DNA from: Gammaproteobacteria bacterium
Lineage (GTDB): Bacteria; Pseudomonadota; Gammaproteobacteria; Poriferisulfidales; Poriferisulfidaceae
NCBI GenBank assembly: GCA_026706895.1
Contig: JAPOXW010000020.1
Coordinates: forward strand, 57,329 to 121,328
Direction: 5' to 3'
DNA: 64,000 nucleotides
Position numbers and translations under genes: made by a program. The notes beneath the pieces were generated by a model. That model was not told the DNA's origin. It saw only the letters and a program-made list of their open reading frames with translations, and did no database searches. Below are positions 6,159 through 36,728 of the stretch, one piece after another; the first letter of the stretch is position 1, and each line of letters begins with the position of its first letter.

Positions 6159-6174
<16 letters not shown>

Positions 6175-6452
6175 CCAAAACCGACCTGGCTGCCCGCTTG
6201 GTCGATCAGATTGGCCTCAACCGGGCAGAGTCCCGCGAGTTGGTGGATGCCTTATTGAACGAGATCAGCACAGCACTCTGTGCAGGCGAGGACGTCCGCT
6301 TGTGGGGCTTCGGCAATTTCATCCTGCGCGACAAGGCGGCGAGGCCCGGCCGCAACCCGCGTAACGGCGAGGAGACGGTCATTGTCCCTCGGCGCGTGGT
6401 GACCTTCCGCCCCGGACAGAAATTGCGCAAGAAAGTCGAAGGCCATGAATGA
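6159..6452 (+). CDS. ihfA: integration host factor alpha subunit
   Basis: MGKTLTKTDLAARLVDQIGLNRAESRELVDALL...GRNPRNGEE...; canonical position after pheT. Confidence 0.9.
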
Positions 6453-6792
6453 GAATGGAAGAGAGGATCAGGCCGTCCTGCCAAACAAGCGATATTTCAC
6501 GATAGGAGAAGTCAGCAATTTATGCCAGGTTAAGGATCATGTGTTGCGGTACTGGGAGAAGGAGATCCCGGCACTGAATCCAAAACGCCGGCGCGGACGG
6601 CGGTACTATCAACGTGAAGACGTATACCTGATTCGGGAGATTCAGGCCTTGATGCAGGAAGGATACACACTGGAGGGTGCCCGGCAGAAACTCCAGGGAC
6701 GGTCTTCGGTTCCGCAGGACACGCCGCAGACCCAGGCCATACGGCAGGCAGTGGCGGAACTCGAGAAAGTCGTCGAAGTGCTCAAGGAGTAG
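6445..6792 (+). CDS. MerR-family HTH transcriptional regulator
   Basis: 115 aa, YFTIGEVSNLCQVKDHVLRYWEKEIP... MerR-type HTH; conserved small regulator downstream of ihfA. Confidence 0.7.
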   Translation: MNENGREDQAVLPNKRYFTIGEVSNLCQVKDHVLRYWEKEIPALNPKRRRGRRYYQREDVYLIREIQALMQEGYTLEGARQKLQGRSSVPQDTPQTQAIRQAVAELEKVVEVLKE

Positions 6793-6845
6793 GAGTGACG
6801 AAAAGGTTGGGCGGGAGAAAGATCCCGCGGCGTTCGGATACGGGA

Positions 6846-6922
<77 letters not shown>

Positions 6923-6955
6923 GTCCCGCCGTGGAAACCCGAGTTCAGCCTGACC

Positions 6956-7744
6956 ATGGCCTGGGACCTGGAGCTGATTCTGGTGGTGGCGACTGCCGCC
7001 ACGGGCCTGATCTACTACGGCCATTTCTTCTGGTACCGCCTGCGCCGTCAGGCACCGCCGATCCACCGGCCCTGGTTCGCCGAGTGGTCGCATGCGCTGT
7101 TCCCGGTATTGCTGCTGGTGCTGGTGCTGCGAACGTTCGCGATTGAACCGTTCCGAATCCCCTCCGGCTCCATGATCCCGACGCTGCTGGTCGGCGACCT
7201 GGTCCTGGTCAACAAGTACAGCTATGGCCTCAGGCTTCCGGTGTTGCACACCCGCATCCTGGAGGTGGGCAAGCCTGAACGGGGCGATGTGGTGGTATTC
7301 CGCTATCCGAAGAACCCGAACCAGGACTACATCAAGCGGGTGATGGGGCTTCCGGGGGACGAAGTGGCCTATGTCGGGAAGCGCCTGATGGTGAACGGGG
7401 AGGTCTATCCCCTGACGGAGGCGCGCCCGTTCCTGGATGCGATCACCGGTCTTCCGTACCCGTATCGCACGCAGTACACGGAAAGCATCAGCGGGCGCCA
7501 GCATGAAATCCTTCACGATGCCCTGTCCAAGAGTGTCCCCGAAAACTTCACGGTGCCGCCGGGCCACTACCTGGTGATGGGTGACAACCGTGACAGTAGC
7601 CGCGACAGCCGGGACTGGGGGTACGTCCCAGAGGGCCATTTGGTGGGCCGGGCCTTTCTGATCTGGATGAATTACGAGCTCCTGCTGCCGTCGCTGACCA
7701 ACCCGGAGGTTTCGCTGCTTTCCCGCCTCGGCAAGATCGAGTGA
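6956..7744 (+). CDS. lepB: signal peptidase I
   Basis: N-terminal TM segments plus catalytic SGSMIPTLLVGDLVLVNK box and GDNRDSSRDSRDWGYVP. Confidence 0.85.
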   Translation: MAWDLELILVVATAATGLIYYGHFFWYRLRRQAPPIHRPWFAEWSHALFPVLLLVLVLRTFAIEPFRIPSGSMIPTLLVGDLVLVNKYSYGLRLPVLHTRILEVGKPERGDVVVFRYPKNPNQDYIKRVMGLPGDEVAYVGKRLMVNGEVYPLTEARPFLDAITGLPYPYRTQYTESISGRQHEILHDALSKSVPENFTVPPGHYLVMGDNRDSSRDSRDWGYVPEGHLVGRAFLIWMNYELLLPSLTNPEVSLLSRLGKIE

Positions 7745-7752
7745 ATCGCTGA

Positions 7753-8430
7753 ATGGCGAAGATCGAGAACTGGTTGCCGAAGGCGGTTCTGGACAGCCCC
7801 GAATACCGGACCGCCCGCACGCACCGCAGCGCCGGCTCGCCGCACAATGAACGACAGGAATTCCTGGGCGACGCACTGCTCGGCCTGGTGATTTCGGATC
7901 TCCTGTGCCAGCGCTTCCCGGATGTTCCGGAAGGAGACCTGAGCCGCCTGCGTGCGCACCTGGTCTGTGGCACCATGCTGGCGAAACTGGCGGAATCGGC
8001 CGAAATGGACCAGTTGCTGATCGCGGAGGCGTCGAGTGCGGCCCGGCCGCGCGCCCGCCGCGTCATGGCGGGAAATGCGCTGGAAGCGGTGATCGCGGCG
8101 GTCTACCAGGTGTGCGGATTCGAGGAAGTGCGCACCTTCATTCTCCGCCTGTACGATCAGGCCCTAGAAGAGTTGCCGCCCTTGGAGTCCCTGCGCAGCG
8201 CCAAGACCGAGTTGCAGGAATTGCTGCAGGCGAGGGGCCGAGAGCGTGCCCGCTATACGCTGCTTGAAGAACGACCGAAGCATTCGCCGCGCTTTGAGGT
8301 GCTGTGCGAAGTGAAGGATCCGAAGGTGCAGACTCGGGGCACTGGCAACCGCATCCGTGAGGCGGAGCAGAATGCGGCGGCGGCCGCGATCGCCGACATC
8401 CAGCGCAAGCGGCCCAAATGGACATCGTGA
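7753..8430 (+). CDS. rnc: ribonuclease III
   Basis: ERQEFLGDALLGLVISDLL RNase III signature plus C-terminal dsRBD. Confidence 0.9.
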   Translation: MAKIENWLPKAVLDSPEYRTARTHRSAGSPHNERQEFLGDALLGLVISDLLCQRFPDVPEGDLSRLRAHLVCGTMLAKLAESAEMDQLLIAEASSAARPRARRVMAGNALEAVIAAVYQVCGFEEVRTFILRLYDQALEELPPLESLRSAKTELQELLQARGRERARYTLLEERPKHSPRFEVLCEVKDPKVQTRGTGNRIREAEQNAAAAAIADIQRKRPKWTS

Positions 8431-9308: not shown

Positions 9309-10003
9309 TGCGGCAGGATGAACTGGTCGCAGCGTACGTGATCCAGGCGCGTCCTTGGCGCGAGACCAGCTTGCTTTACAAGGTGGTCGCACAGGACCAT
9401 GGGCGGGTCAGCCTGATCCATCGCGGGGCACGCAACAACCGCCGTGACCGGCCGCTGCCGACATTGACCCCGGTACGGGTGTCCTGGGGCGGGCGCGGCA
9501 GCTTGTACACCCTGCACCACGCCGAGGTCGCCGGCCCGATGACGGTGAAAGACCCGAAGCGGCAGGTCTACGCCCTGTACGTCAACGAGATCGTCAGCTA
9601 CCTGCTGCCGGACGACCGCTATTCGGACGAGATCTATCCGCTGTACCACGAGGCACTGGCTCATCTGGACACTGCCGCGGACCCTGAATTCGTGCTTCGC
9701 GGAATCGAGATGGACTTGTTGCACTTGGCCGGTCACCCGCTGCAACTGGATCGCACCGAACAGGGGAAGGTCGAACCGGGGCGGCAATATCGTTATCACC
9801 CGGGCGCCGGGCCCACGGAGCTTCCGGAGGGAAGCGAGGCGGATGGGGTCAGCGGTCAGACCCTGCTGACTCTCCAGACCCGACAGGAAATGGACGAGCA
9901 AACGCGGCGCGAGGCGCGCCGCCTGATGCGGCAGGTGTTGGACTACTACACGGCCCCGAACGTGATTCGGTCGCGGGGCATTATGCAAGCCCTGACGGGC
10001 TGA
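9308..10003 (+). CDS. recO: DNA repair protein RecO
   Basis: 231 aa; N-terminus AYVIQARPWRETSLLYKVV... typical RecO OB fold; synteny after era. Confidence 0.85.
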   Translation: MRQDELVAAYVIQARPWRETSLLYKVVAQDHGRVSLIHRGARNNRRDRPLPTLTPVRVSWGGRGSLYTLHHAEVAGPMTVKDPKRQVYALYVNEIVSYLLPDDRYSDEIYPLYHEALAHLDTAADPEFVLRGIEMDLLHLAGHPLQLDRTEQGKVEPGRQYRYHPGAGPTELPEGSEADGVSGQTLLTLQTRQEMDEQTRREARRLMRQVLDYYTAPNVIRSRGIMQALTG

Positions 10004-10033
10004 TCCCTGTAACGCCGCCGATTTGAAGAGGGG

Positions 10034-10891
10034 TTAAGGCAAGCGGTCTTCGGGTTCCGGCGGTTGTCCCCCGTCCCTACGCAAGATGCGCAATGCCGCT
10101 TCGATATCAGCCTCGGCTGCGCCCGCAGCGAAGAATGATGCCGTCTTCATCGCGGAGACCTTTTCGGCGACTGCCATGACGACGAACTGGTTGATGCTCG
10201 TACCTTCCTCCTTGCAAACCTTGGCGACCGCCGACTCCAGGGATGCTGGCCACTTCAAGGAGAAAGCGCTGGCACGGTCGGACTTGCTGGTCGCAGGGTC
10301 CGAGTGGTTGGGGATGTGTTGATTGTCGCGGCAGTACTGCCACAGGTAAGCATCAACTTGTTGCCGAGTGAGTTCATGCTCCCGGCTCAGAAACGTGACC
10401 ATCTCTTCCACGGTTGCGGAACACGCGGCGGCGCATTGCTTCATCCAAGTGTCAGGCTTCTCCGTGTCTTCAAGACCGATGGCCGTTGCCAGGTGTCGGC
10501 TCGTGGCGGGTCCCATATAGGGAAGTTCCGTAAGCACAACCCTGCCGTCCTTGCGCATCCGTTGCTTGAAAGCCTCCCATCCTTCCGCGTGAATCAGTTT
10601 GCACCCCTTGAGGAAAGCATCCGCCTTCCGCTGATTGCGGATCGGCAACGTCTTAGCGTCGATTGACTCCATGGCCACGATCCTGTCCAGGTCGAGGTTG
10701 TGGAATTTCTTGACGATGGTGTCGAAGTGCTCCTCGACGACTGAATTTCGAAAACCTGAGACAAAGATGACATGGAGGTAATTCTCGAGAAATCCTTTCA
10801 GATCGAGATCGTTGAAATTCCATGGCTCCCACGGGTTGCCAACATATGCCCGTGCGGTTTCCAGCATCCGTGTTGCCTTGTTCTTGTCCAT
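10034..10891 (-). CDS. hypothetical protein: N-terminal domain weakly Tag-like (3-methyladenine glycosylase I-like HhH) fused to a C-terminal ribbon-helix-helix (HicB/CopG-like antitoxin-type) tail
   Basis: 285 aa on the opposite strand, inserted between recO and pdxJ. C-terminal LKWPASLESAVAKVCKEEGTSINQFVVMAVAEKV...EADIEAALRIL..PPEPEDRL matches the RHH antitoxin pattern; the N-terminal assignment is tentative. Confidence 0.5.
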   Translation of the reverse strand: MDKNKATRMLETARAYVGNPWEPWNFNDLDLKGFLENYLHVIFVSGFRNSVVEEHFDTIVKKFHNLDLDRIVAMESIDAKTLPIRNQRKADAFLKGCKLIHAEGWEAFKQRMRKDGRVVLTELPYMGPATSRHLATAIGLEDTEKPDTWMKQCAAACSATVEEMVTFLSREHELTRQQVDAYLWQYCRDNQHIPNHSDPATSKSDRASAFSLKWPASLESAVAKVCKEEGTSINQFVVMAVAEKVSAMKTASFFAAGAAEADIEAALRILRRDGGQPPEPEDRLP

Positions 10892-11000
10892 TTGTCATTG
10901 CCGTTTGCGGGCTATTCTAATCAAAGTGCTGCCTGATGTTGTTGAGTTCGGAAAGCCATTAGTGGTACAGTGTTAGCAGCAAAAACTATTCCGCAGTAAC

Positions 11001-11723
11001 GTGACGAATGTACGACTAGGCGTGAATATTGACCACATAGCGACCCTGCGCCAGCAGCGCCACACCGACTACCCGGACCTGAGCGAGGCGATCCGCCGAG
11101 TGGAAGCGGCCGGGGCGGACGGCATCACCATGCACCTGCGCGAAGATCGGCGGCACATTCAGTTGGAGGACGTGGAGCAGGCGCGCCGGGAAGTGAGCGG
11201 GACCCTGAACCTTGAGATGGCCGCAACCGAAGAAATGTTGGACATCGCGGAGCGCATTCGCCCGGACTACTGCTGCCTGGTGCCGGAGCGGCGCGAGGAA
11301 CTCACCACCGAAGGCGGGCTGGACGTCGTGGCGGGCGCAGACCGGATCCGGGAGGCATGCACTCGGCTGAAGGCGGCGGGCATTCAGGTTTCGCTGTTCG
11401 TCGAACCGACGCACGAAGTGATGGATGCAGCGGTCGAACTGGGTGCGTCGATCGTGGAGTTGCACACCGGTCCCTACGCCAACGCGACGGAACCGGAAGC
11501 CCACGAGGCGGAGCTGGAACGGCTGGTTTCCACCACGCAGTATGCGCGTGAACGGTTGACGGTCAACGCCGGACACGGCTTGCATCGCGACAACGTGGGC
11601 TCGGTGGCTTCGATCCCGGGAATGAACGAACTTAACATCGGTCACGCCATCGTTTGCCGGGCGGTGATGGTGGGATTGGAAGCAGCCGTGCGCGAGGTGC
11701 GCGAAGCCATGGAGACGCCATGA
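11001..11723 (+). CDS. pdxJ: pyridoxine 5'-phosphate synthase
   Basis: GTG start; [19 protein letters not shown]...[13 protein letters not shown] typical PdxJ. Confidence 0.9.
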
Positions 11724-12613
11724 GGGAGTATCCGACCATCGAATCCAGCATCGGCAACACGTCGCTGGTTCGCCTGCAGCGCATGGCGCCCGAGGGAGTC
11801 ATGGTGTTGGCCAAGCTGGAAGGAGACAATCCGGCCGGCTCGGTCAAGGATCGCCCGGCCATCAACATGATCGAGGCCGCAGAGGAACGCGGAGACATTC
11901 GTCCGGGCGACACGCTGGTCGAGGCGACCAGCGGCAACACCGGGATTGCGCTGGCGCTGGCGGCGGCGATCCGCGGCTACCGGATGATCCTGATCATGCC
12001 GGAGAACATGAGCCTGGAACGGCGCCAGACCATGGCGGCGTACGGGGCTGAACTGATCCTGGTCACGCAGGAGGAAGGCATGGAGGGGGCCCGCGACCGG
12101 GCGCTGGAGATGAACCGTGCGGGCGAAGCGTTCATCCTGAACCAGTTCGACAACCCGGACAACTCGGATTCGCATTATCGGGGCACCGGGCCGGAGTTGT
12201 GGCGGGACACCGGGGGTGAACTGACGCATTTCATATCTTCCATGGGCACGACCGGGACCATCAGTGGGGCGGGGCGCTACCTGAAGGAGCAGAATCCCGA
12301 CATCGAGGTGATCGGCGTGGAGCCGGCGGACGGTTCCGCCATTCCGGGCATCCGTCGCTGGGCGGAGGGGTACGTCCCGAAGATCCTGGAGCGGGACGTG
12401 GTCGATCGGGAAATCGACGTTACGCGAGAAGACGCGGAAAACACCATGCGCGAACTGGCGAAGCGGGAAGGGATTTTCGCCGGGATCTCATCGGGCGGCT
12501 GCATGCACGTGGCTCTGCAGGTGGCGGCGGAAGTCGCGCCGGGGTCGGTGATTGCCGCTATCGTGTGCGATCGCGGAGACCGCTACCTGTCCTCGGGAGT
12601 CTATCCGTCATGA
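11720..12613 (+). CDS. cysM: cysteine synthase B-like (O-acetylserine sulfhydrylase)
   Basis: ATG 11720 overlaps pdxJ stop; [34 protein letters not shown]-fold motifs; ~298 aa and the QFDNPDN region resemble CysM. Confidence 0.8.
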
Positions 12614-13413
12614 TCGGAGACGTGCTGGCCTTCGACATCGAGACCATTCCGGATGCGAAGCTGGGCCGGCGCCTTTACGATCTCTCAGACGATCTCCCCG
12701 ACGAGGACGTGGTGCGCGCCATGGAGCAGTTGCGCATGCAGAAGACTGGCGGGCACCTGTTTCAGCCGCTGTACCTGCAGAAAGTAGTCTGCATCTCGGT
12801 GGTGTACCACACGGAGTCGGTGTTGGTTGCGAAGTCCCTGGAGGATATCGACGCGGATGAACGCACAATCATCCGCAACTTCTTCGATGGCATCGAGCGG
12901 GCTGCCCCGCGGCTGGTCACCTGGAACGGCAACGGGTTCGACCTTGCGGTGCTGAACTACCGTGCCATGTATCACGGGATCTGCGCTGCGCGCTTCTGGG
13001 AGACGGGCGACAACGAGCGGGAATTCCGCTACAACAACTACATCAGCCGCTACCACGAACGGCACCTGGACCTGATGGACGTGCTGTCACGCTACAACCC
13101 GCGCGCCTCGGCCGGGCTCGACGACTTTTCCACCATGCTGGGCTTCCCCGGGAAGCCGGAGGGGATGTCAGGCGGCGAGGTGTGGCCGGCCTATCGGGAC
13201 GGGCGGCTGGCCGAGATCCGCGAGTACTGCGAAACCGACGCGATCAGCACCTACCTGGTGTTCCTGCGCTTCGAATTCCTGCGCGGCAACCTGCTGCGGG
13301 AGGAGTATGTCGAACTGTGCGACCAGCTGCAGTCCTACTTGGAGGAAGAGGACAAGGCCCACTTCCGTGATTTCCTGACGCGGTGGGATCGCGAGAACGA
13401 TCCGGTCGGCTAG
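12610..13413 (+). CDS. predicted 3'-5' exonuclease related to the PolB exonuclease domain (RNase H-like)
   Basis: ATG 12610 overlaps cysM stop; N-terminal LAFDIETIPD (exo I DxE) and later dispersed acidic motifs (YCETDAIST); resembles the COG3298-type standalone exonuclease. Confidence 0.55.
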   Translation: MIGDVLAFDIETIPDAKLGRRLYDLSDDLPDEDVVRAMEQLRMQKTGGHLFQPLYLQKVVCISVVYHTESVLVAKSLEDIDADERTIIRNFFDGIERAAPRLVTWNGNGFDLAVLNYRAMYHGICAARFWETGDNEREFRYNNYISRYHERHLDLMDVLSRYNPRASAGLDDFSTMLGFPGKPEGMSGGEVWPAYRDGRLAEIREYCETDAISTYLVFLRFEFLRGNLLREEYVELCDQLQSYLEEEDKAHFRDFLTRWDRENDPVG

Positions 13414-13417
13414 GCCG

Positions 13418-14545
13418 TCAGTCCAACAGTTTTCCGATGATGGCGCGGTAGACCTCGGCCAGCCGGTCGAGGTCCTCGACGGCGACGTGTTCGTCGATCT
13501 TGTGGATGCTGCGGTTGATTGGGCCGAATTCGACCACTTCGGCACCGGTTGGGCGGATAAACCGTCCGTCTGAGGTGCCGCCTTCGGTGCTGAGTTCCGC
13601 TTCCGACCCCAGCACTTCCGATACGGCGTCTTGGCAGATCTGGGTCAGGGTGCCGGGTGGCGTGCGGTAAGGCAGGCTCGCCTCCTGCCATTCAATTTGG
13701 TGCTCGAATCCGGCTTGCTCAAGAATTCCGGCAATTCGCTCTTGCAGTTCTTCGGCAGTGACTTCCGTCGAGTAGCGCAAGTTGAAATCCGTGGTCAGTT
13801 CGCCAGGGACCACGTTGGCGGCACCACATCCGCTGTTGAGGTTGGAAACCTGGAACTGGGTCGGCTGGAAGTCCTCGTTACCCTCGTCCCAGATGGTTTC
13901 GGTCAACTCCATCAGGGCTGGCGCGAACCGATGAATCGGATTGTCGCATAGGGCTGGGTAGGCAATGTGGCCCTGGGTGCCGCGAACCGTCAGCCGTCCG
14001 GACAACGAACCGCGACGGCCATTCTTGATGACGTCGCCAAGCCGTTCGCGGCAACTGGGTTCGCCAACGATGCACCAGGCAGGGATCTCCTGGCGCGCCT
14101 GAAGTTGCTCGACCGTGGCCCGGGTGCCGTGCACGGCCGGGCCTTCCTCGTCGCTGGTCAGCAGCAGGCCGATGGCGCCGGGGTGGCCGGGTCGTTGCAC
14201 GACGTACTGGGCGCAGGCGACCACCATTGCGGCGACGCCGCCCTTCATGTCAGCCGCGCCGCGGCCGTACAGAAGCCCGTCGCGTACCGTCGGGCTGAAG
14301 GGATCGCTGGCCCATTGCTCGAGCGGGCCGGTTGGCACGACATCGGTGTGCCCGGCAAACATCAGCAACGGTTCGCCCTCGCCGTGGCGCAGCCACAGGT
14401 TTTGGACCTCGGCGAACGGCATGGATTCAGCGACGAATCCATGAGGTGCGAGGTACTCGGCGATCAGGTCTTGACAGCCCGCGTCTTCCGGCGTGACCGA
14501 CGGCCGCTCAATCAGTGCGCAGGTGAGATCCAGGACTTCCGACAT
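13418..14545 (-). CDS. dapE: succinyl-diaminopimelate desuccinylase
   Basis: 375 aa M20 peptidase; AGHTDVVP, GRGAADMKGG motifs. Confidence 0.9.
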   Translation of the reverse strand: MSEVLDLTCALIERPSVTPEDAGCQDLIAEYLAPHGFVAESMPFAEVQNLWLRHGEGEPLLMFAGHTDVVPTGPLEQWASDPFSPTVRDGLLYGRGAADMKGGVAAMVVACAQYVVQRPGHPGAIGLLLTSDEEGPAVHGTRATVEQLQARQEIPAWCIVGEPSCRERLGDVIKNGRRGSLSGRLTVRGTQGHIAYPALCDNPIHRFAPALMELTETIWDEGNEDFQPTQFQVSNLNSGCGAANVVPGELTTDFNLRYSTEVTAEELQERIAGILEQAGFEHQIEWQEASLPYRTPPGTLTQICQDAVSEVLGSEAELSTEGGTSDGRFIRPTGAEVVEFGPINRSIHKIDEHVAVEDLDRLAEVYRAIIGKLLD

Positions 14546-15801: not shown

Positions 15802-18444
15802 CTATTCGCGCAGGGAATCTCCGAGTTCCTTGATGTGCTGGCGCAGGGTATCGGAGATCTGCATCTGCATCTTGGGGTCGCGAATCGGGCGGGACTCGGC
15901 ATCGGTGACGGTGAACACGTCCTGCACCTGCGCGCCCAGGGTCGTGATCCGCGCTTGGGTGATCCGGACCTGGCACGAGTCGAGGGCCCGGCTGACGGTC
16001 CAAAGCAGGCCCGGATGGTCGGAAGTCGAGAGGTTGATCCGGGTCTCGGGCGGGGTCTCGCGCTGCACAAACTCGATTTCGGTCGGAAGGTCGAAATGCC
16101 GGGTCCGTCGTTTCGGTTGACGCAGCACCGGGCGATCGAAGTCCCCTGGTGCCTGCGCCACGTTCTGCAGGGTCGTGCGCATTTCCTCCAGCGCGTAGCG
16201 TTCGCTGATTGGATGGCCGTCGACATCGGTCACCAGGAAAGTCTGCAGGATGTGGTGGTCGCGGGTCTCGGTGATGCGCGCGTACAGCACGTTCGCGCCG
16301 AGCCGGGCGAGCGCCGCCGTGAGCGGGACGAACAGGCGGGCATGGCTTTCGTCGTAGACCAGCACTTCCGTGCAGTGATGCTCGCCCTGGTGGCGTACGA
16401 ACACCTGGGTCGGGATTCCGGGGTCGCGGCCGACGATGCACTCGGTCTGCCAGGCCAGCTCGTCGTCGGTGTAGTGCAGGAGGTCGCCGTCGGGCAGGGA
16501 GTCCCAGAACCGGTGGCAGGCGGCCAGCTCACCATGGGGAACTTTCGCGAGTGCCGAAGTCTTGAGGTCCTCGATCTGCTGTGCCGCGTCGAACGGCTGG
16601 TCCAGGCCGCGCTGCAACTGCTGGTCGGTCGCGACGTACAGTTGGTACAGCAGTGCTTCGCGCCAGGGCGTCCATAGCGCCGGGTTGGTGCCGCGCAGGT
16701 CGGCGACCGTCAGCAGGAAGAGGCCGCGCAGGCGAACCCCGTTTCCGACCAGCATCGCAAACCGGCTCACCACGTCCGGGTCGCTGATGTCGCGCTTCTG
16801 TGAGGTCATCGACATCTGCAAGTGATGCTCGACCAGCCAGTGAACCATGCCGGCGTCGTAGGCACTCAGATGGTGATCCAGGCAGAACTCCCGGGCGAGC
16901 GCGCTGCCGATGCTGGAATGGTCGCCGTCGCGCCCCTTGCCAATGTCATGGAACAGGACCGCGAGGTACAGCAGTTCGGGCTTGGGGAACTGCAGGAACA
17001 GCTCGCGGTAAAGGGGGTTTTCGCCTTCCCGGACCATCTTGGTGATATGCCGCAACTCGGTCAGCACCCGCAGGGTGTGTTCATCCACCGGGTGGATGTG
17101 GAACAGGTCGTACTGCATCATGCCGACCACCTTCGCGAAGTCCGGCCAGTACCGGCGCAAAACGCCGTAACGGTTCATGCGGCGCAGTTCGCGGGCGACG
17201 TGCTGGGGCTGTCGCAGGATCTCCATGAACAGGCTCTTGGAGGCCAGCCGGGCACGGAAGGCCTCGTCGATCCGATGCAGGTTGGCGCGGGCTGACCGGA
17301 TGGTGTGCGCCCGCACGCCCTCGATTTCAGGGTTTTGCTGCAGCAGCAGGAACAGTTCGAGAAGCCCTTGGGGATGGCGTTCGAAGACCTTCTCGTTGCG
17401 GGTCTCCAGGTAGCCGTCCGAGACTTGGAAATAGGCGTTCAGGGGCCTCGGAGCATTGCGGCTGGACGGTTGCAGGCTCTCGCGGTAATGCTGGCTGAGC
17501 ACCTCGGCGAGACGATCGGTCTCACTGGTCGTGCGGTAGAAGTCCTGCATGAATGACTCGACGGTGTGGTTGACAGTGTCGCCCCGATAGCCGAGCCACT
17601 CGGCGATCGGGCACTGGTAGTTGAACAGCAAGCGTTCTTCGGCCTGGCCGCTGGCCTCGTGCAGGGCGAAACGCACCTGCCACAGGAACCGCTCTCCCTC
17701 GCGCAGCAGTTCCAGTTCTTCCGGCTCGCAGAAATCCGACGGGCTCTCGATGTCTTCGTGCCGCTTCAGGATCCAGTGCAGGGTCTGGATGTCGCGCAGT
17801 CCGCCGGGCCCCTCCTTGATGTTGGGCTCCAGCCGGTAGTTGCTGCCGCCGAATTGCTGGTGGCGGGATTCCTGTTCCGTGACCTTGCCCTGAAAGAACT
17901 GCTCGTGGGTCCACAGGGGTGCCCGGAACAGCCCGATCCGGGGCTCCAGGTTGCCTTCCAGGTCGCGGGCCAACTTGGAATTCCCGCACAGGTGCCTCAT
18001 TTCGAGCCAGCTGGTCATCAGGGTGATGTCGTCGCGGGCATCCTGGCGGCACTGGTGGACGGTGCGCACGCTCTGAGACAACTTCAGCCCGCCGTCCCAC
18101 AGGGCTTGGAAGAACGGGCCCAATTCCTCCGGGGCGCGCCGCCCCCGGTACAGGGCCAGGACGTCGATATCGGAATAGGGGTGCAGTTCGCCCCGGCCGT
18201 AGCCGCCGACCGCGAGTAAAGCGAGATCCTCGATCTCATTCAGCCGATACTCGCGCCACAATACTTGCAGCATCCGGTCGATGAGTTCGGCCCGCGCGTG
18301 AATCAGTTCGGCAATGTCATGGTCCGGGAAGCGTTCCGACAGGAACTGCTGGATCGCCTCGGTCCACTGCTTCCAGCTTGCGGAGCCGGCATCCTGCGGC
18401 GAGGGATGCGCGTTGAGGCAGGCCTGGGCCAGGTCGGTTCTCAC
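15802..18444 (-). CDS. glnD: [protein-PII] uridylyltransferase / uridylyl-removing enzyme
   Basis: 881 aa from GTG 18444, 2 nt overlap with map stop; nucleotidyltransferase motif [18 protein letters not shown] domain, two C-terminal ACT domains; the 1092-aa track ORF includes a spurious extension through map. Confidence 0.85.
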
Positions 18445-19211
18445 GGAAACCGTTCGTCGGGCCGGGCGGTCAGCACCTCGAAGCCGTCCTCGGTGACCAG
18501 GATGGTGTGCTCCCACTGGGCCGACAGGCTGTGGTCGCAAGTGACCACGGTCCACTGGTCCGGCAACAGTCGCACCTGTGGCATCCCGGCGTTGATCATC
18601 GGCTCGATCGTGAAGGTCATGCCGGGCTTCAGCGCCATCCCGGTGCCAGCCTTGCCGTGGTGGAGGACTTGCGGTTCTTCGTGGAATTCGCGCCCGATGC
18701 CATGACCGCAGTATTCGCGCACCACGGACAGGTTTTGGCCCTCCGCAAAGCTCTGGATGACGTGGCCGAGGTCGCCGAGCCGGAGGCCCGGGCGCACCAG
18801 GCAGATGGCCCGGTGCATCGCTTCGTAGGTCAGTTCGACCAGCCGGCGGGCCTGCACGGACGGCTTGCCGAGAAAAAACATGCGGCTGGTGTCGCCGTGG
18901 TAGCCGTCCTTGATGACGGTGACGTCGATGTTGAGGATGTCGCCGCGCTTGAGCTTGCGTTCGGAGGGGATGCCGTGGCAGACCTGGTGGTTGAGCGTGG
19001 TGCAGACGGACTTCGGGAAGCCGAGGTAGTTCAGCGGGGCTGGGATGGCATCCTGTTCCTCCGTGATGTAGCGGTGGCACAGGTCGTTGAGGTAGTCGGT
19101 GGTGACGCCGACTTCGACGTGTTCGGCGATCATTTCCAGCACGTCCGCGGCGAGGCGCCCGGCCGTGCGCATCTTTTCCACTTCTTCGGCGGTCTTGATG
19201 GTGACAGGCAT
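18441..19211 (-). CDS. map: type I methionine aminopeptidase
   Basis: 256 aa; pita-bread fold metal-site residues in conserved context; map-glnD-dapD order as in E. coli. Confidence 0.95.
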   Translation of the reverse strand: MPVTIKTAEEVEKMRTAGRLAADVLEMIAEHVEVGVTTDYLNDLCHRYITEEQDAIPAPLNYLGFPKSVCTTLNHQVCHGIPSERKLKRGDILNIDVTVIKDGYHGDTSRMFFLGKPSVQARRLVELTYEAMHRAICLVRPGLRLGDLGHVIQSFAEGQNLSVVREYCGHGIGREFHEEPQVLHHGKAGTGMALKPGMTFTIEPMINAGMPQVRLLPDQWTVVTCDHSLSAQWEHTILVTEDGFEVLTARPDERFP

Positions 19212-19304
19212 GGTTGGAGGACGCGTCGGGGGCTAGGTCTGCAACAAACTATTATGAGCCATCGGGCCATGTCAGCCACGCCCCGACAGCCTGATTCCAG
19301 TCAA

Positions 19305-19348
19305 TTGATGCACTTATAAGCATCACTTGATGTATAATCTATGCATCA
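19305..19348 (+). promoter_or_regulatory. putative vapBC promoter/operator: two TGATG-N10/11-CATCA palindromes overlapping a TATAAT -10
   Basis: TGATGcacttataagCATCA (19306-19325) and TGATGtataatctatgCATCA (19328-19348) directly upstream of the vapB SD (GGAGG) and ATG. Confidence 0.3.
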
Positions 19349-19367
19349 TATCCGGATGGAGGCTGGC

Positions 19368-19571
19368 ATGCGAACGACACTGAACATCGACGAGACCCTG
19401 CTGGCGCAGGCGCGGTTGCTCACCGACATCGAGTCGAAATCGAAATTGGTTCGCGAGGCGCTGAGGGCGCTGGTGGAGCGAGAGAGTGCCCGCCGGCTCG
19501 CAAAACTGGGCGGCAGCCAGCCTGAACTTCTGGATATTCCGCGCCGCCGTCTCGCCGATGATCCTAGCTGA
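19368..19571 (+). CDS. vapB: type II antitoxin VapB-family (Rv0623-like)
   Basis: 67 aa, MRTTLNIDETLLAQARLLTDIESKSKLVREALRALVERESARRLAKLGG; GGAGG SD; overlaps vapC by 14 nt. Confidence 0.8.
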   Translation: MRTTLNIDETLLAQARLLTDIESKSKLVREALRALVERESARRLAKLGGSQPELLDIPRRRLADDPS

Positions 19572-19929
19572 CACTTCCGTCTGGATCGAGCATTTCCGCG
19601 TCGGCAACGAGGCGTTGGCCCGCCTGCTCGACGAACATCAGGTGTGGGTCCATCCGTTCGTGATTGGCGAGATCGCCTGCGGCAACCTCGAGGATCGCAA
19701 GGAAATCCTGTCGGGGCTCACGCATCTTCCCGCGGTGCCGGTGGCGACGCATTCCGAAGCGCTGTTCTTCTTGGAGCGGAATCGGCTGGCAGGGCTCGGC
19801 ATCGGCTATGTCGATCTGCACCTGCTGGCGTCAGCGTCGCTGGCGCCACCGATGCGGTTGTGGACGCGGGACCGGCGACTCGGGGCGGTGGCGGATGGCA
19901 TGGGCTGCGCCTATGGACGTCACCACTAA
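19558..19929 (+). CDS. vapC: PIN-domain toxin VapC
   Basis: MILADTSVWIEHFR... PIN acidic residues (DTSV, GEIA, DLHLL). Confidence 0.85.
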   Translation: MILADTSVWIEHFRVGNEALARLLDEHQVWVHPFVIGEIACGNLEDRKEILSGLTHLPAVPVATHSEALFFLERNRLAGLGIGYVDLHLLASASLAPPMRLWTRDRRLGAVADGMGCAYGRHH

Positions 19930-19958
19930 AGTAAAGGATTTGACATGCATGTTCTACA

Positions 19959-21515
19959 ATGTGCTTTGTGCCGTTGCATAGACCCGTCAACCGTGCTGGA
20001 ACAGGGCAGATGACTGCTGAAATTGGGCTTCAAATAGAAAATACGGGCCCGTTATCGGTAGTGGACCAAACCCGCCTAGAAGTATCAAGGCGCACTGGTG
20101 CAGAAAAAAAATCATGCCTTGGGCAATTTCTAACACCTGCGAGCACGGCAGCATTTATGGCGGGACTTTTTCCCCGATCTCAAGGGGAATGCCGCTTGCT
20201 TGACGCTGGAGCAGGAATTGGTTCTCTTTCAAGTGCATTTTTGGAAAGGTGCGTAAATGGAGAAATGAAATTCGATGCAGTCCAGATTGCAGCGTTCGAA
20301 ATTGATCCGGCAATCCAAGAAGAACTGCAACGTTCTTTGTCCTACTACACCGAGAAATGTCCTTTATCCTATGAAATCGTCGGCGAAGATTTTGTAGAAG
20401 AGGCAGTCAATTCGATCCAGTTTCAAAAATGCAATTTCACGCACGCTATTCTGAATCCTCCCTACAAGAAGATCCGTAGCAACTCTAGATACCGGGAACT
20501 TACGCGTCAAGTTGGGATTGAGACTGTCAATCTTTATTCCACGTTTGTAGCTTTGGCCATCGCGCTGACCCAACCGAATGGACAGATCGTGGCAATTATC
20601 CCTCGCAGCTTTTGCAACGGGCCTTACTATCGCCCTTTCCGTGAATTTATTTTTGCTCACACTGCCATCCAGCATATACACCTATTCGCATCCCGGGACA
20701 AGGCCTTCAGGGATGATGATGTACTTCAGGAAACGATCATCATCCGGCTTGAGCGAGAGGCTAAACAGGGGTCTGTGACAGTTTCCACATCGACCGACAA
20801 CACTTTTTCCGACCTGACCGAACACACATATCCGTTTGAGCAAATCGTGCAGCCAGATAATTCTGAGCGATTTATTCATATTCCCACTTCTTCGACTATG
20901 GCCACGGGTCTTCCTCCGATCGTTCGCCACACGCTGGATGAATTGGGCATCAAGGTTTCCACTGGACCCGTAGTGGACTTTCGACTGAGGGAACACCTGC
21001 GCGAGATGCCAGGCCCAGATTGCGCCCCCTTGCTCTATCCCGGACACTTCAGCAATGGCGGCATCACATGGCCTGCTACCGGAGAAAAGAAGCGAAATGC
21101 CATTAGGCGCAGTGCCGATACTGAAAAGTGGCTATATCCCTGTGGATTCTATTGCGTGGTCAGGCGCTTTTCATCCAAGGAAGAAAAACGTCGAGTCGTG
21201 GCCAGTGTGGTCGACCCCAGTCCATTTGGCGATGCGGATGCACTCGGTTTTGAGAATCACCTGAACCTGTTCCACGAAAACAAGCGCAGTCTGCCACAAG
21301 CTCTTGCACACGGTCTCGCCGTATTCCTGAATTCGACTCTTGTCGATGACTATTTCAGACGTTTCAGCGGACACACCCAAGTTAATGCCACGGATTTGAA
21401 GTTCATGAAATATCCGAGTCGAGGCATGTTGCTTAAGCTTGGCAAGTGGGCCATGCGGAATGGGAAAATCACTCAAGCCATGATTGATAACCGGATACAT
21501 GCGCTCTTCACATGA
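19959..21515 (+). CDS. type II N6-adenine DNA methyltransferase, BsuBI/PstI-family (gamma class)
   Basis: FLTP (motif X), LLDAGAGIGSL (motif I, AdoMet), ILNPPYKK (motif IV NPPY); ~518 aa like M.PstI/M.BsuBI; lower GC than the flanks; alternative start ATG 20010. Confidence 0.8.
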   Translation: MCFVPLHRPVNRAGTGQMTAEIGLQIENTGPLSVVDQTRLEVSRRTGAEKKSCLGQFLTPASTAAFMAGLFPRSQGECRLLDAGAGIGSLSSAFLERCVNGEMKFDAVQIAAFEIDPAIQEELQRSLSYYTEKCPLSYEIVGEDFVEEAVNSIQFQKCNFTHAILNPPYKKIRSNSRYRELTRQVGIETVNLYSTFVALAIALTQPNGQIVAIIPRSFCNGPYYRPFREFIFAHTAIQHIHLFASRDKAFRDDDVLQETIIIRLEREAKQGSVTVSTSTDNTFSDLTEHTYPFEQIVQPDNSERFIHIPTSSTMATGLPPIVRHTLDELGIKVSTGPVVDFRLREHLREMPGPDCAPLLYPGHFSNGGITWPATGEKKRNAIRRSADTEKWLYPCGFYCVVRRFSSKEEKRRVVASVVDPSPFGDADALGFENHLNLFHENKRSLPQALAHGLAVFLNSTLVDDYFRRFSGHTQVNATDLKFMKYPSRGMLLKLGKWAMRNGKITQAMIDNRIHALFT

Positions 21516-22462
21516 GTAGTGGAAACGACCACATTCAGGCAGCGCAGGAAATCATCATCTTCCTAGGTTTGCTAAAGGCTCAGCAGAACGAGCGTTCAGC
21601 ATTATGTTTGTTGGCGTTGTTGAATTTAACCCCAGATAAAACATGGGCCGAATCGGAAAGCCCGCATATGGGCATTACTCCCATTATGGACTGGACGAGG
21701 GAACATTACGGCAGAGACTACGCTCCGAACACTCGGGAGACATTTCGGCGTCAAACGATGCATCAGTTTTGTGATGCGGGAATCGCCCTGTATAACCCAG
21801 ATGATCCTGATCGTCCGGTGAATAGCCCTAAAGCAGTTTATCAAGTTGCGCCAGCCGCTTTGGATTTGCTACGCCTGTATGAAACTTCTGCATGGGATGA
21901 TGCCCTTATATCCTATTTGGATAGGCATCCAACGCTCATGAGTCGCTATGAGAAAAAGCGCGAACAAAATCTTGTCTCCGTCACAATTCCACCAAATCAA
22001 GAGATAACCTTCAGCCCCGGCAATCACAGCAAACTTATTCGAGGAGTTATAGAGGAATTTGCCCCACGTTTTGCGCCGGGAAGCGTTTTGATTTACGCCG
22101 GTGACACTGGCAACAAGTGGGCTTATTGCGATACCGCCCTTATGGGCGAACTCGGTATTGATGTTGATTTACACGGCAAAATGCCTGACGTGATGTTGCA
22201 TTATGCTGAAAAGAATTGGTTGTTTTTGGTCGAGGCCGTTACCAGCCACGGACCGGTGGACGGCAAGCGTTATGAAGAATTAGCCGAACTCTGTTCCGGA
22301 GTCAAAGCCGGTCTGGTATATGTAACGGCCTTTCCCGACCGTTCTTCCATGCGAAAATTTCTTCCTGAAATTGCTTGGGAAACAGAAGCTTGGGTTGCTG
22401 ATTCTCCGTCTCACCTGATGCATTTCAATGGTACTCGTTTTCTTGGCCCTCATGACAGGTGA
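21512..22462 (+). CDS. BsuBI/PstI-family type II restriction endonuclease
   Basis: 316 aa, ATG overlaps the MTase stop (ATGA); size and position downstream of a PstI-type MTase match the BsuBI/PstI REase family; low GC. Confidence 0.65.
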   Translation: MSSGNDHIQAAQEIIIFLGLLKAQQNERSALCLLALLNLTPDKTWAESESPHMGITPIMDWTREHYGRDYAPNTRETFRRQTMHQFCDAGIALYNPDDPDRPVNSPKAVYQVAPAALDLLRLYETSAWDDALISYLDRHPTLMSRYEKKREQNLVSVTIPPNQEITFSPGNHSKLIRGVIEEFAPRFAPGSVLIYAGDTGNKWAYCDTALMGELGIDVDLHGKMPDVMLHYAEKNWLFLVEAVTSHGPVDGKRYEELAELCSGVKAGLVYVTAFPDRSSMRKFLPEIAWETEAWVADSPSHLMHFNGTRFLGPHDR

Positions 22463-22612
22463 CAGGCTGCAAACCCATAAAAGAGCTATACAAAATTGAT
22501 TCTCAAGGCGAATTTAATTATAATAAGTGCCCGGCATGAGCCGGGCCATCAATCCTTAACTATAGAGTCGCGTAACGCTTTGGTAACTAGCGGCATGATT
22601 GAGCGGTAGTCG

Positions 22613-23539
22613 ATGCCAATTCCCGACTTTCAGTCACTGATGCTACCCACCCTCAAGGCATTTAATGCCAGTGAGGAGATGCCGTTGTCGGAGGTCCGCA
22701 AGCAGGTCAAAGACGCCGAGGGGCTATCTGCTGAGGATATCCGGGAAATGCTTTCGAGTGGCCGACAGACAAAGTTCGCAAACCGTGTGAATTGGGCTGT
22801 GACCTACATGGAGCGCGCCCATCTTCTTGCTCGGGTTCGCCGTGGTGTGTACCGGTTGACGCAAGAAGGTAAGCGCTTGCTTGTTCAGGCACCTTCACGC
22901 ATCGACATCAACTTGCTTGGAGAATACCCTGATTTTGCCGAATGGCGGCAACGAGCAAACACGTCGCCTCGCGGCAAGGATGAGGGGACTAAGCAAAACG
23001 ATAACATTATCGAGACACCAGAGGAAGTGCTGGAAAGAGTTGTACAGCAATTGCGCAGCGAGCTGGAAGCGGATGTGCTGAGTCGGGTTCGTGATGCAGA
23101 GTCAAGTTTTCTTGAGCAGATTGTTGTCGACTTGCTGATCGCGATGGGCTACGGTGGTGGCGATGCCGCGAGAGGCCAAGTAACTGGACGTTCGGGCGAT
23201 GGGGGGATTGACGGCACGATTCGGGAAGATGCGCTCGGTTTGGACGAAGTTTATGTGCAGGCGAAAAGGAACAAAGACGGCAACACTGTGGGCGAAGGAG
23301 ATCTGCGCAATTTTGCTGGAGCGATTGATGCTGTGGGCACAACCAAAGGCGTGTTCGTTACTACGGCTGATTTTACGCGCGCTGCGAGAGAATACGTATC
23401 GCGAAGTCCGAAACGAATCATTCTGGTCGATGGTGCGGAACTTGCCCGCCTGATGGTCCAGCACGGGATTGGAGTACGTACACGAGTTCAAGAGGTCAAG
23501 CAGATCGACGAAGACTACTTCGATCAGGAAGCGATATAA
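22613..23539 (+). CDS. mrr: Mrr-family type IV (modification-dependent) restriction endonuclease
   Basis: 308 aa; N-terminal winged-helix Mrr_N, C-terminal Mrr_cat core (DLLIAMGYGG...GDGGIDG...VYVQAKR). Confidence 0.8.
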   Translation: MPIPDFQSLMLPTLKAFNASEEMPLSEVRKQVKDAEGLSAEDIREMLSSGRQTKFANRVNWAVTYMERAHLLARVRRGVYRLTQEGKRLLVQAPSRIDINLLGEYPDFAEWRQRANTSPRGKDEGTKQNDNIIETPEEVLERVVQQLRSELEADVLSRVRDAESSFLEQIVVDLLIAMGYGGGDAARGQVTGRSGDGGIDGTIREDALGLDEVYVQAKRNKDGNTVGEGDLRNFAGAIDAVGTTKGVFVTTADFTRAAREYVSRSPKRIILVDGAELARLMVQHGIGVRTRVQEVKQIDEDYFDQEAI

Positions 23540-23714
23540 GACCGTAAGCCCTTGCCATGTATAATGCGCGCTCGCAGGCTCGCCTGCGAAAATTCGCGTC
23601 CGAACCGACACGAGCGGTGGGTGCCCCCAGGGTTGCTGCGAGGGGTTCGGGCAAGTTGACAACCCGCAAGGCTTCGGAACTTGACAGCCCGGAGCCGCCA
23701 TCAGGAGGGCCGCA

Positions 23715-24722
23715 ATGCCGTGTGCCACCTTGCGTGAGATGCTGGAAGCCGGTGTCCATTTCGGACATCAGACCCGGTACTGGAACCCCAGCATGGCGCC
23801 GTACATCTTCGGCGAGCGCAACAAAATCCATATCATCAATCTCGAAATCACCCAGCGTATGCTGGACGAGGCCGCCGAGCAGGTGCGCCAGTGGGCTGCC
23901 GAAGGCAAGACGATCCTGATCGTCGGTACCAAGCGGGCGGCTCAAGACATCGTCAAGTCCAAGGCCGAGGAGTGCGGGATGCCGTACGTCTCGCAGCGCT
24001 GGCTGGGCGGGACGCTGACCAACTTCCACACCGTGCGCAATTCCATCAAGCGCCTGCAGGATCTCAAACGCATGGAGGGCGAGAACCTGATGGCGCGCAT
24101 CAGCAAGAAGGAAGCGTTGCGCCTGACCCGCGAAAAGCTCAAGCTGGAGCGCAGCCTGGGCGGCATCGAGGACATGGAGCGGTTGCCGGACGCCCTGTTC
24201 GTGATTGATGTCCGCTACGAGAACATCGCGGTGCGCGAGGCTCGCCGCCTGAACATCCCGGTGGTTGCGGTGGTCGACAGCAACAGTTCGATTGAAGGCA
24301 TCGACCGGATCATCCCGGGCAACGACGACGCGATCCGCTCGATCCGGCTCTACATGGGCGTGATCAGCAATGCGATCCAGGAAGGGAGCAAGCAAGCGGA
24401 GGAAGAAGGGGTCGCGGTGGAAGCGCCCGCTCCCCGGGAGCCTGCCGTGAAGCGCAAGGGCCGGCGGACCAAGTTGCGCGTCGAGGCGAAGGAAGACTCG
24501 CAACCGGAGGAGGCCACCGACGAGGCGGCGCCTGAACCCGAAGCCGCGGCGGTGGAGGATTCGGGGGATTCCACTGAGCCGGCTGAAGAAGACACCCAGG
24601 CCGAAGCGGCCGGGAATGGAACCGAAGCCGAGGCTGCTGCGGTGAAGGAGCCAGCCGAAGCTCCAGCGGCAGCCGAGGCCGAGGCCGAGGCCGAACCTGA
24701 AGCCGAGACGGCTGCCAAGTAA
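23715..24722 (+). CDS. rpsB: 30S ribosomal protein S2 with a ~95-aa acidic Ala/Glu/Pro-rich C-terminal extension
   Basis: [17 protein letters not shown]2 signature; core ends near aa 240, then [11 protein letters not shown]...[16 protein letters not shown] low-complexity tail. Confidence 0.95.
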
Positions 24723-35355: not shown

Positions 35356-36138
35356 TTGAGTATTCATCCGACGGCCGTGGTGGACGCCGGGGCGGAGATC
35401 GACCCCACGGCGGAAATCGGCCCGTACGCGGTCATCGGCCCGCACGTGCGCATCGGCGCCGACACCTGGGTCGGCCCGCACGCCGTGGTCACCGGGCGCA
35501 CCACCGTGGGCCGGGAGAACCGGGTCTTCCAGTTTGCCTCGGTCGGCGAGATTCCGCAGGACAAGAAGTATGCCGGCGAGGACAGCGAACTGGTCATCGG
35601 CGACGGCAACACCATCCGCGAGTTCGTGACCCTCAACTGCGGCACGGCCCAGGGCGAGAACTGCACCCGGATCGGGAACCGGAACTGGATCATGGCGTAC
35701 GTGCACATTGCGCACGACTGCGTAATCGGGGACGACGTGACATTTGCGAACGGTGCAACGCTGGCGGGTCATGTCGAGATCGAGGATCACGCGATTCTGG
35801 GAGGCTTCACCCTGGTGCACCAGTTCTGCCGCATCGGACGCCATGCGTTCAGCGGCATGGGCTCCGCCTTGAACAAGGACCTCCCGCCTTTCGTGCTGGC
35901 ATCGGGCAACCTGGCCCGTCCTTACGGACTCAACCGCGAAGGATTGCGCCGGGCCGGCTTCTCCGAGGAGACGATGGAGGCGTTGTCACGGGCCTACAAG
36001 CTGCTGGTCCGTGTGTCGGGCGGGCAGCCGGAGGACGAGATCCAGCAACTGGCCGGACAATATCCGGAAGTGGAGCAGATGCGGGCGTTTATCGCAGAGA
36101 GTCGCCGCGGCATCATCCGCGAGAAGAGTTCCGACTGA
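35356..36138 (+). CDS. lpxA: acyl-ACP--UDP-N-acetylglucosamine O-acyltransferase
   Basis: TTG start 15 nt after fabZ stop; SIHPTAVVDAGAEI... hexapeptide repeats; 260 aa. Confidence 0.9.
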   Translation: MSIHPTAVVDAGAEIDPTAEIGPYAVIGPHVRIGADTWVGPHAVVTGRTTVGRENRVFQFASVGEIPQDKKYAGEDSELVIGDGNTIREFVTLNCGTAQGENCTRIGNRNWIMAYVHIAHDCVIGDDVTFANGATLAGHVEIEDHAILGGFTLVHQFCRIGRHAFSGMGSALNKDLPPFVLASGNLARPYGLNREGLRRAGFSEETMEALSRAYKLLVRVSGGQPEDEIQQLAGQYPEVEQMRAFIAESRRGIIREKSSD

Positions 36139-36190
36139 ATCGATTCGCTAGACGGTTTCTTGTGCAGAATGCCCTGCCCCATTTATGCTT

Positions 36191-36219
36191 TTGACAGCAT
36201 ATAATCTATAAGTTATATT
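36191..36219 (+). promoter_or_regulatory. putative sigma70 promoter (TTGACA - 17 bp - TATATT) in an AT-rich spacer after lpxA
   Basis: near-consensus -35 and a good -10 in an unusually AT-rich 150-bp stretch upstream of the inserted membrane-protein gene. Confidence 0.3.
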
Positions 36220-36296
36220 ATTCGCATGAGGTGGGCGGTTGCGTTTGATGTAATTTCTGGGCAAGAGCCTGGGGTTTTGGCTGCCGGGGCCGAACA

Positions 36297-36632: not shown

Positions 36633-36728
36633 TCCGATCAGACAGGTCTTTCGCCTTTGGGACAGAGCGGTTCTACTGAGCGAGCGAGAAAGGAGATATA
36701 GAGTTCCGGGCAATCACCGAGAGTTTTT

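Follow-up and report, generated by a model that had tools for sequence, protein, structure and literature searches.

The junction between map and rpsB on a contig of a Gammaproteobacteria bacterium (JAPOXW010000020.1 of assembly GCA_026706895.1, positions 57,329 to 121,328; this whole stretch of 64,000 nucleotides is hereafter called the window) carries a VapBC toxin-antitoxin pair, a PstI/BsuBI-type type II restriction-modification (R-M) pair and an mrr gene, one after the other. Our analysis of this junction and of its counterparts in related genomes makes it likely that the region is a layered chromosomal defence hotspot, which is old and found throughout this uncultured gammaproteobacterial lineage and whose cargo is swapped by homologous recombination.

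Genes were taken from the listing of open reading frames (ORFs) and from direct reading of the sequence, and families were assigned by profile searches with Pfam, NCBIfam and PADLOC. The features of the junction, with the E-values of their profile matches, are the following:

18441-19211, minus strand: map, methionine aminopeptidase, the left flank (Peptidase_M24 3.9e-56; NCBIfam met_pdase_I 4e-94, above cutoff)
19212-19367: divergent intergenic region between map and vapB, with an extended -10 element TGTATAAT at 19331-19338, a putative vapB promoter element, and the vapB ribosome-binding site GGAGG at 19358-19362
19368-19571, plus strand: vapB, antitoxin of 67 amino acids (PF09957 VapB_antitoxin 8.7e-13)
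19558-19929, plus strand: vapC, PIN-domain toxin of 123 amino acids (PIN, PF01850, 7e-07)
20010-21515, plus strand: gamma-class N6-adenine DNA methyltransferase (MTase) of the PstI/BsuBI-type type II R-M pair, 501 amino acids (Eco57I 2.5e-12)
21512-22462, plus strand: BsuBI/PstI-family type II restriction endonuclease (REase), 316 amino acids (BsuBI_PstI_RE_N 4e-53; BsuBI_PstI_RE 1.7e-61)
22479-23536, plus strand: mrr cassette of about 1.06 kb, delimited by spacer alignments with relatives that lack mrr
22496-22524, plus strand: promoter-like site TTGATT-17-TATAAT upstream of mrr, matching the consensus at 10 of 12 positions and followed by a GC hairpin at 22529-22546
22613-23539, plus strand: mrr, encoding 308 amino acids (Mrr_N 1.6e-25; Mrr_cat 6.8e-32)
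23558-23714, plus strand: predicted rpsB promoter (extended -10 TGTATAAT, 23558-23565), followed by the conserved 5' leader; this segment bounds the hotspot on the right
23715-24722, plus strand: rpsB, ribosomal protein S2, the right flank (Ribosomal_S2 3.1e-92; NCBIfam rpsB_bact 1.1e-95)

The five island genes, their family assignments and the ATGA overlap within the R-M pair had been proposed in an original prediction made from the sequence alone, and, the antitoxin family apart, all were confirmed by the ORF calls and profile matches. The conserved layout that it described around the site also holds, as dapD, glnD, map, rpsB and tsf are matched by NCBIfam equivalog models. The three successive layers that it described were borne out as well, as defence or addiction genes at a junction that is normally short. 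The spacer between map and rpsB measures 4503 bp in the window. Of 69 other gammaproteobacterial loci, 68 have a spacer of 167-651 bp and the remaining one, from a Legionella metagenome-assembled genome (MAG), has 3083 bp. These loci come from a background set of 80, found with Map among GTDB species representatives, of which 69 have divergent map and rpsB genes; the closest Map among the representatives is no higher than 73% identical, and the set serves as background for spacer length only. None of the five island proteins is encoded in any of the 80 loci. Because the spacer is short in 68 of the 69 loci and the island proteins occur in none of the 80, the region is a real insertion relative to Gammaproteobacteria as a whole.

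Closer relatives were found through the contigs of the closest REase and Mrr homologues and by a metagenome scan with VapC, and the assembly pairs L084/L085 and L088/L089 were each counted as one organism. They share a backbone of glnD-map on one side and rpsB-tsf-pyrH-frr on the other, with variable content in between, and their Map proteins are 88-97% identical to that of the window in L081, L082, L087, L088 and L091. An exact look-up of the window Map itself gave no record. The vapBC pair is present at the junction in every clade relative found and the R-M pair in nearly all, while mrr is confined to the window and L091-L093. An independent Logan assembly, L090, has vapBC, R-M and mrr and aligns with the window at 100% identity along 10,098 nucleotides. 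The same three layers lie between map and rpsB in L091, a scaffold of 1.0 Mb whose host proteins are 95-98% identical to those of the window (Mrr 89%), and in L093; L092 is partial, with mrr immediately upstream of rpsB and then the contig end. Only vapBC and the R-M pair are found in L081, L084/L085 and L088/L089, where about 165-220 bp separate the REase gene from rpsB, and L085 has in addition a gene for an HTH_3 protein of 97 amino acids (1078-1371) between vapC and the MTase gene.

Other relatives carry different cargo. In L082/L083, vapBC and the R-M pair are joined by an AbiEi-like DUF6088 gene (PADLOC AbiEi 8.7e-56), which lies between map and vapB; this gene (7113-7709 of L082) stands without an AbiEii partner. 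In L096 (MKWU01000324.1, 10900-14500) the slot that holds mrr in the window, between the REase gene and rpsB, is filled by an insertion sequence (IS) with a DDE_Tnp_1_4 transposase (11193-12731, minus strand, GC about 0.7) and a low-GC Shosta system (ShosA, 12993-13910, 1e-94; ShosT, 13846-14442, 1.2e-23). The relative with the closest map gene (97% at the amino acid level), L087, has a rearranged locus: its positions 1-8424 hold map, an IS630-like transposase gene, an inverted R-M pair, a RelA_SpoT-like gene (PADLOC PDC-S33), a GmrSD_N/NsnA-like gene, vapBC and a second IS, whose nucleotide identity to the IS of L096 is 76%. In L095 (amino acid identity 92% for Map and 85% for VapC), map and vapBC are followed by 1.8 kb of sequence with host-like GC and no MTase gene (4163-6000), which resembled none of the other loci and drew no match from Pfam or PADLOC. 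Differing defence cargo is hence found between the same core genes in at least nine independent contigs, as is characteristic of a chromosomal defence hotspot. An 82%-identical MTase-REase pair was further found in a different genome (L086, 8523-10954 of a 194-kb contig), without vapBC or mrr and between ihfB/HU and lapA-lapB-pyrF; the R-M cassette therefore also lands at other core-gene junctions.

The layers of the island differ in their history. By nucleotide distances, the hosts fall into a first subclade of the window, L091, L082 and L087, which are 3.5-5.6% apart, and a second of L081, L084/L085 and L088, which are 9-10% apart. The subclades are separated by 11-13.5% in most pairs; for L087 and L081, which share only part of map, the distance is 0.084. 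Distances between vapBC copies reproduce this structure at about 1.7 times the host rate, and because they run parallel to the host distances they fit vertical inheritance of the pair. The R-M alleles do not follow the host relationships and are mosaic. The R-M pair of the window is closer to that of L081 (0.099) than to that of L091 (0.117), whereas the respective host distances are 0.123 and 0.050. L087, at a distance of only 0.035 in map, has an R-M pair 0.257 from that of the window and about 0.26 from all others, with synonymous divergence (dS) above 2. In sliding windows, L082 and L085 are 1-6% divergent in the middle of the MTase gene and at the 3' end of the REase gene and 19-33% divergent elsewhere, at the 5' ends of both genes. 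In L082, the REase 3' end and the spacer that follows it are nearer to L085 (4% divergent) than to the sister lineage L091 (13%). This likeness of the L082 segment to L085 fits a replacement by homologous recombination, with which mrr would have been lost.

All five island genes are under purifying selection, with ratios of nonsynonymous to synonymous divergence (dN/dS) of 0.05-0.19: 0.06-0.18 for vapB, 0.09-0.18 for vapC, 0.05-0.12 for the MTase gene and, against L091, 0.19 for mrr. On the strength of these low ratios, together with the invariant acidic residues of the PIN domain and the invariant REase columns described below, the island genes look functional.

The layers also differ in base composition. 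Host genes have a GC content of about 0.64 and a GC content at third codon positions (GC3) of 0.81-0.88. The MTase gene (GC 0.49, GC3 0.50), the REase gene (0.48 and 0.47) and mrr (0.54 and 0.55) are clearly atypical, whereas vapB (0.62 and 0.71) and vapC (0.64 and 0.79) lie near the host level. The low GC originally ascribed to the whole region is accordingly limited to about 19950-23540, the R-M pair and mrr, and does not extend to vapBC. Close relatives with the same genes at this site and host-like GC had been named as evidence that would speak against an acquired island; relatives that differ by as much as about 13% in nucleotides do have these genes at the site, but their R-M and mrr genes are GC-poor too (GC3 0.46-0.62). 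That this composition persists across relatives had seemed a puzzle of missing amelioration, which we dropped: since dS between the closest host lineages is only 0.13-0.24 and R-M alleles are exchanged, a lasting low GC3 of R-M and mrr is unsurprising and no sign of recent arrival. Low GC at such a site need not mean a recent insertion.

The hallmarks of a classical mobile genomic island, namely an integrase or transposase, a tRNA or att site and flanking direct repeats, are lacking in the window. No integrase or transposase gene is among the window ORFs, as had been predicted, and there is no tRNA near the island. Repeats in the window are limited to short direct and inverted ones of at most 25 nucleotides, which are imperfect and none of which bracket the island. 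A candidate flanking repeat common to both island ends, ATGTATAAT, was rejected, as it corresponds to the two -10 elements and 9-mers recur by chance here. IS elements at the locus were seen only in the relatives L087 and L096.

The third layer, mrr, has sharp boundaries. On the left, homology to the spacer of L081, which has no mrr, ends after CAAACCCAT (22470-22478), 16 nucleotides past the REase stop codon. On the right, it returns at TAAGA..GTAA.CC.TTGCC, which includes the mrr stop codon (23537-23539) and lies directly upstream of the rpsB -10 element. The cassette is missing from the same position in L081, L082, L084 and L088 and is shared with L091, L092 and L093. The site TTGATT-17-TATAAT inside it is the best promoter consensus match in the region and probably serves as the gene's own promoter. 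Two differences separate the window from L091 (22479-22612 and 23520-23545 of the window against 9912-10000 and 10900-11290 of L091). Upstream of mrr, the window has 59 additional bp that carry the -10 element TATAAT and the hairpin at 22529-22546, and at the 3' end of mrr it has lost about 190 bp. This deletion fuses the mrr frame to the old spacer between REase and rpsB, and the C-terminus of Mrr is thereby shortened relative to the sister lineage, to 308 amino acids instead of 317.

The protein has the architecture of a type IV Mrr enzyme, with an Mrr_N DNA-binding domain and an Mrr_cat nuclease domain with the catalytic D...(Q/E)xK signature, here GDGGIDG...VYVQAKR, and is classified by PADLOC as mREase_IV (3.3e-74); the MTase beside it is part of the type II pair and also occurs in relatives without mrr. 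A search of PDB sequences with Mrr gave no match. The window Mrr is 100% identical to the homologue P0121 and 89% identical to P0122, and the best homologues outside the clade are 73-75% identical and come from unrelated genomes including Roseovarius, Albidovulum and Tectomicrobia. In one of these, an unrelated genome of 5.5 Mb (L094, 1-12930), a 75%-identical Mrr directly follows a HigB/HigA pair inside an element with a phage-type integrase, AlpA, a DnaB/AAA_25 gene and an IS110 transposase. A toxin-antitoxin pair beside Mrr recurs there in a different form. The cassette boundaries, the presumed own promoter and the homologues in unrelated genomes and in the L094 element all point to mrr as a separately acquired, mobile single-gene cargo.

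Like the enzyme of E. coli K-12, the window Mrr combines an Mrr_N winged-helix domain with an Mrr_cat domain bearing D...QxK, has been laterally acquired and lies beside other restriction systems. In E. coli, M.HhaII and type III Mod enzymes act as triggers of Mrr (PMC5435990, PMC3152355, PMC2993543). The two differ in that foreign N6-methyladenine (m6A) MTases trigger the E. coli enzyme, whereas the window Mrr coexists stably with an adjacent m6A MTase. This co-residence would imply a different specificity of the window Mrr, one that tolerates that mark. A naturally compatible combination of an Mrr homologue and a PstI-type m6A MTase may be usable for the study of Mrr specificity.

Both proteins of the R-M pair are assigned to the BsuBI/PstI group with high scores. 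The two REase domains lie far above the gathering score and the gene adjoins that of a gamma-class N6A MTase, whose translation contains the motifs LDAGAGIG and, further on, NPPY. PADLOC identifies the MTase as MTase_II (PDLC03227, 4.8e-200) and the REase as REase_II (4.2e-146). A single PADLOC profile of 840 positions, PDLC03359, is matched by the MTase at 6-512 (7e-139) and by the REase at 529-839, in the same M-then-R order as in the window. The REase aligns over its full length with the sequence of the SdaI structure 2IXS (1.4e-79) and keeps every invariant column of a 14-sequence alignment, including PD225-226, E241 and V243-T-S-H246; the same PDB sequence search with the MTase gave no match. 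REase homologues of about 70% identity occur across phyla and on plasmids. The pair shares with PstI and BsuBI systems an REase with N-terminal helix-turn-helix and catalytic PD-(D/E)XK domains and a monomeric gamma-class MTase with NPPY. In the PstI system the two genes diverge, and in YenI both functions are fused into one polypeptide; the window genes differ from both in being separate and in tandem, the REase start overlapping the MTase stop by 4 nucleotides (ATGA). The window pair also has no controller (C) protein, a role that the HTH_3 protein encoded before the MTase gene in L085 may have. From the family assignment, the recognition site is probably CTGCAG or a close variant, methylated at adenine; M.PstI is a monomeric gamma-class N6A MTase for CTGCAG (PMC3874165).

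The vapBC pair has the features of a VapBC type II toxin-antitoxin module. Matches to PF09957 and PF01850 are above their cutoffs, a short antitoxin gene is overlapped by a PIN toxin gene, by 14 nucleotides, and the four catalytic acidic residues D5, E38, D86 and D105 are invariant in 11 VapC homologues down to 50% identity. The vapB ORF can be extended upstream to 19341, and the start at 19368 is favoured because of the GGAGG at 19358-19362 and because relatives have calls of 67 amino acids. The antitoxin had been expected to be Rv0623-like, which was not borne out, its match being to the Pfam family VapB_antitoxin. VapC scores 31.4 bits against the NCBIfam VapC equivalog model, which has a cutoff of 80, and is PIN/VapC-like but outside that curated equivalog; no PADLOC defence model matched vapBC. 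In contrast to modules that are recent mobile cargo, the pair behaves as vertically inherited chromosomal genes.

Taken together, these results suggest the following model. The vapBC pair would be the oldest layer, a resident PIN toxin-antitoxin operon that is fixed in the relatives, near host composition and co-diverging with the host. VapC would act as a PIN RNase restrained by VapB and may stabilise the locus or add an abortive response, and the vapBC and R-M modules together may also stabilise the locus by post-segregational killing. The MTase is predicted to methylate host adenines in a CTGCAG-like palindrome, so that the REase would cut unmethylated incoming DNA, and the alleles of this pair appear to have been exchanged or converted repeatedly between lineages by homologous recombination. 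Variable cargo would be taken up between the REase stop codon and the rpsB promoter, in a slot that holds a single-gene mrr cassette in the lineage of the window. Mrr would cut foreign-methylated DNA and in this way cover phages and plasmids that escape the type II enzyme through modification, a combination from which an anti-phage benefit can be expected. The conserved flanks would provide the homology arms, with map and vapBC to the left and the rpsB leader plus rpsB to the right, and no mobility gene would be needed.

Some of our results weigh against this model. The host part of the window shows no depletion of CTGCAG, with 46 sites observed and 48 expected under a fourth-order Markov model, and because its frequency is as expected the presumed specificity has no visible footprint in the genome. 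Of the 46 sites, none lies in the island, where about one is expected, and CTGCAG frequency is uninformative on specificity. The clade members found include none with an empty site or with only vapBC, and for that reason the order of acquisition is derived from composition and distribution only. Even when sister lineages are compared, island genes have a dS 1.5-3 times as high as the flanks, which could reflect relaxed codon constraint rather than exchange. Finally, Heitman and Model reportedly observed in 1987 that E. coli Mrr attacks M.PstI-modified DNA. Were it to apply to the window Mrr, this enzyme and the MTase would be self-toxic. The reviews consulted on Mrr name only M.HhaII and type III Mod as triggers, and no statement on M.PstI was found in them. 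A narrower reading, in which the locus is a lineage-specific, recombination-driven cassette slot, with vapBC and the rpsB leader as its homology arms and addiction anchor, and the Mrr subfamily housed in it has evolved tolerance of PstI-type m6A, seems unlikely to us. If true, type II and type IV systems with potentially conflicting logic would coexist as a two-sided filter and would offer a natural pair for mapping the determinants of Mrr target choice.

The layered hotspot also has to be set against other explanations of the same locus. One holds that vapBC and the R-M pair are mainly selfish addiction elements kept by post-segregational killing, so that the locus is a graveyard or safe harbour rather than an anti-phage array. 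The R-M alleles do spread laterally and recombine, the ~70%-identical REase homologues across phyla and on plasmids suit such a view, and the constant anchor of the locus is a toxin-antitoxin pair for which PADLOC has no defence model. However, the cargo of the relatives consists of recognised anti-phage systems (Shosta, AbiEi, GmrSD/NsnA-like) clustered in a manner typical of defence islands, and Mrr, which has no addiction property, is nevertheless under purifying selection (dN/dS 0.19). We therefore regard a predominantly selfish role as quite improbable, although the selfish-element and defence views are not mutually exclusive.

Another explanation is that vapBC, R-M and mrr arrived together in a single recent horizontal acquisition and that the integrase or transposase has since been lost. 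Five co-oriented and tightly packed genes, a strongly GC-poor R-M pair and mrr, and a window without mobility genes next to relatives with IS elements at the same locus (L087, L096) could be taken to mean this. The genes nevertheless form three distinct GC3 classes. All relatives, even those about 13% divergent, have a vapBC pair that co-diverges with the host; mrr is missing from L081, L082, L084 and L088, and its cassette has a clean boundary; the R-M pair is mosaic, with an incongruent phylogeny; and the nearest Mrr homologue outside the clade has different neighbours. A single recent islet is for these reasons very unlikely. The original prediction of one compact islet inserted as a unit accordingly fails, as the modules differ in GC3, in distribution among relatives and in history. 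Its further suggestion of a recombination-delivered or decayed island survives in part: delivery by recombination is plausible, but not as one recent insertion, since assembly appears to have been stepwise and cargo is still exchanged. A chimera of assembly or binning, joining foreign low-GC DNA to a host contig, was considered because the source is a MAG and a sharp GC step lies at about 19950. It can be ruled out for practical purposes, since the independent Logan assembly L090 is 100% identical over 10 kb and at least seven other assemblies, which stem from different samples and among which is the 1.0-Mb scaffold L091, show the arrangement too.

The closest analogue of the layered hotspot is the immigration control region of E. 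coli (hsd-mcrBC-mrr), in which mrr adjoins hsd and mcrBC (PMC3874165, PMC2993543). Both are fixed loci between conserved core genes, without dedicated mobility genes and with alternative cassettes in related strains. They differ in that the present locus lies in the divergent map/rpsB promoter region of another lineage, upstream of an essential ribosomal-protein operon, is anchored by vapBC and includes Shosta, AbiEi and GmrSD-like genes among the cargo of relatives. Every component belongs to a well-known family and none is new. Particular to this locus are the divergent map/rpsB site with an intact rpsB leader, the fixed vapBC anchor and a cassette turnover that proceeds mostly without mobility genes. 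It offers a clean example of a defence hotspot without a mobility gene directly upstream of an essential ribosomal-protein operon, in which natural variants display cassette gain, cassette loss and intragenic mosaicism.

The rpsB promoter and leader at the right boundary are nearly identical in all relatives, with or without mrr. The Rfam family t44 (RF00127) aligns over its full length with the leader at 23579-23663, at a score of 18.5 bits (E 0.17) that is below gathering; at the gathering threshold, Rfam found only a tRNA in the window. The leader may be homologous to the map-rpsB leader RNA of enterobacteria, though diverged from it. RpsB itself has 335 amino acids, with a C-terminal tail of about 100 amino acids (from about 24400) rich in Ala, Glu and Pro, and complete rpsB products among the relatives have 305-379 amino acids. 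Its score of 255 bits against the NCBIfam model '30S_S2 sunset domain variant' is below the cutoff of 710.

Elsewhere in the window, a second low-GC patch at 55600-59000 (GC 0.43-0.51) encodes an ankyrin-repeat protein (55596-56477; Ank_2 9.7e-63), an NYN-domain protein (58467-58928) and several further ORFs without Pfam match, and may be another acquired segment. In the 1-kb profile, GC also dips to about 0.55-0.56 at 10001-11000 and 36001-37000.

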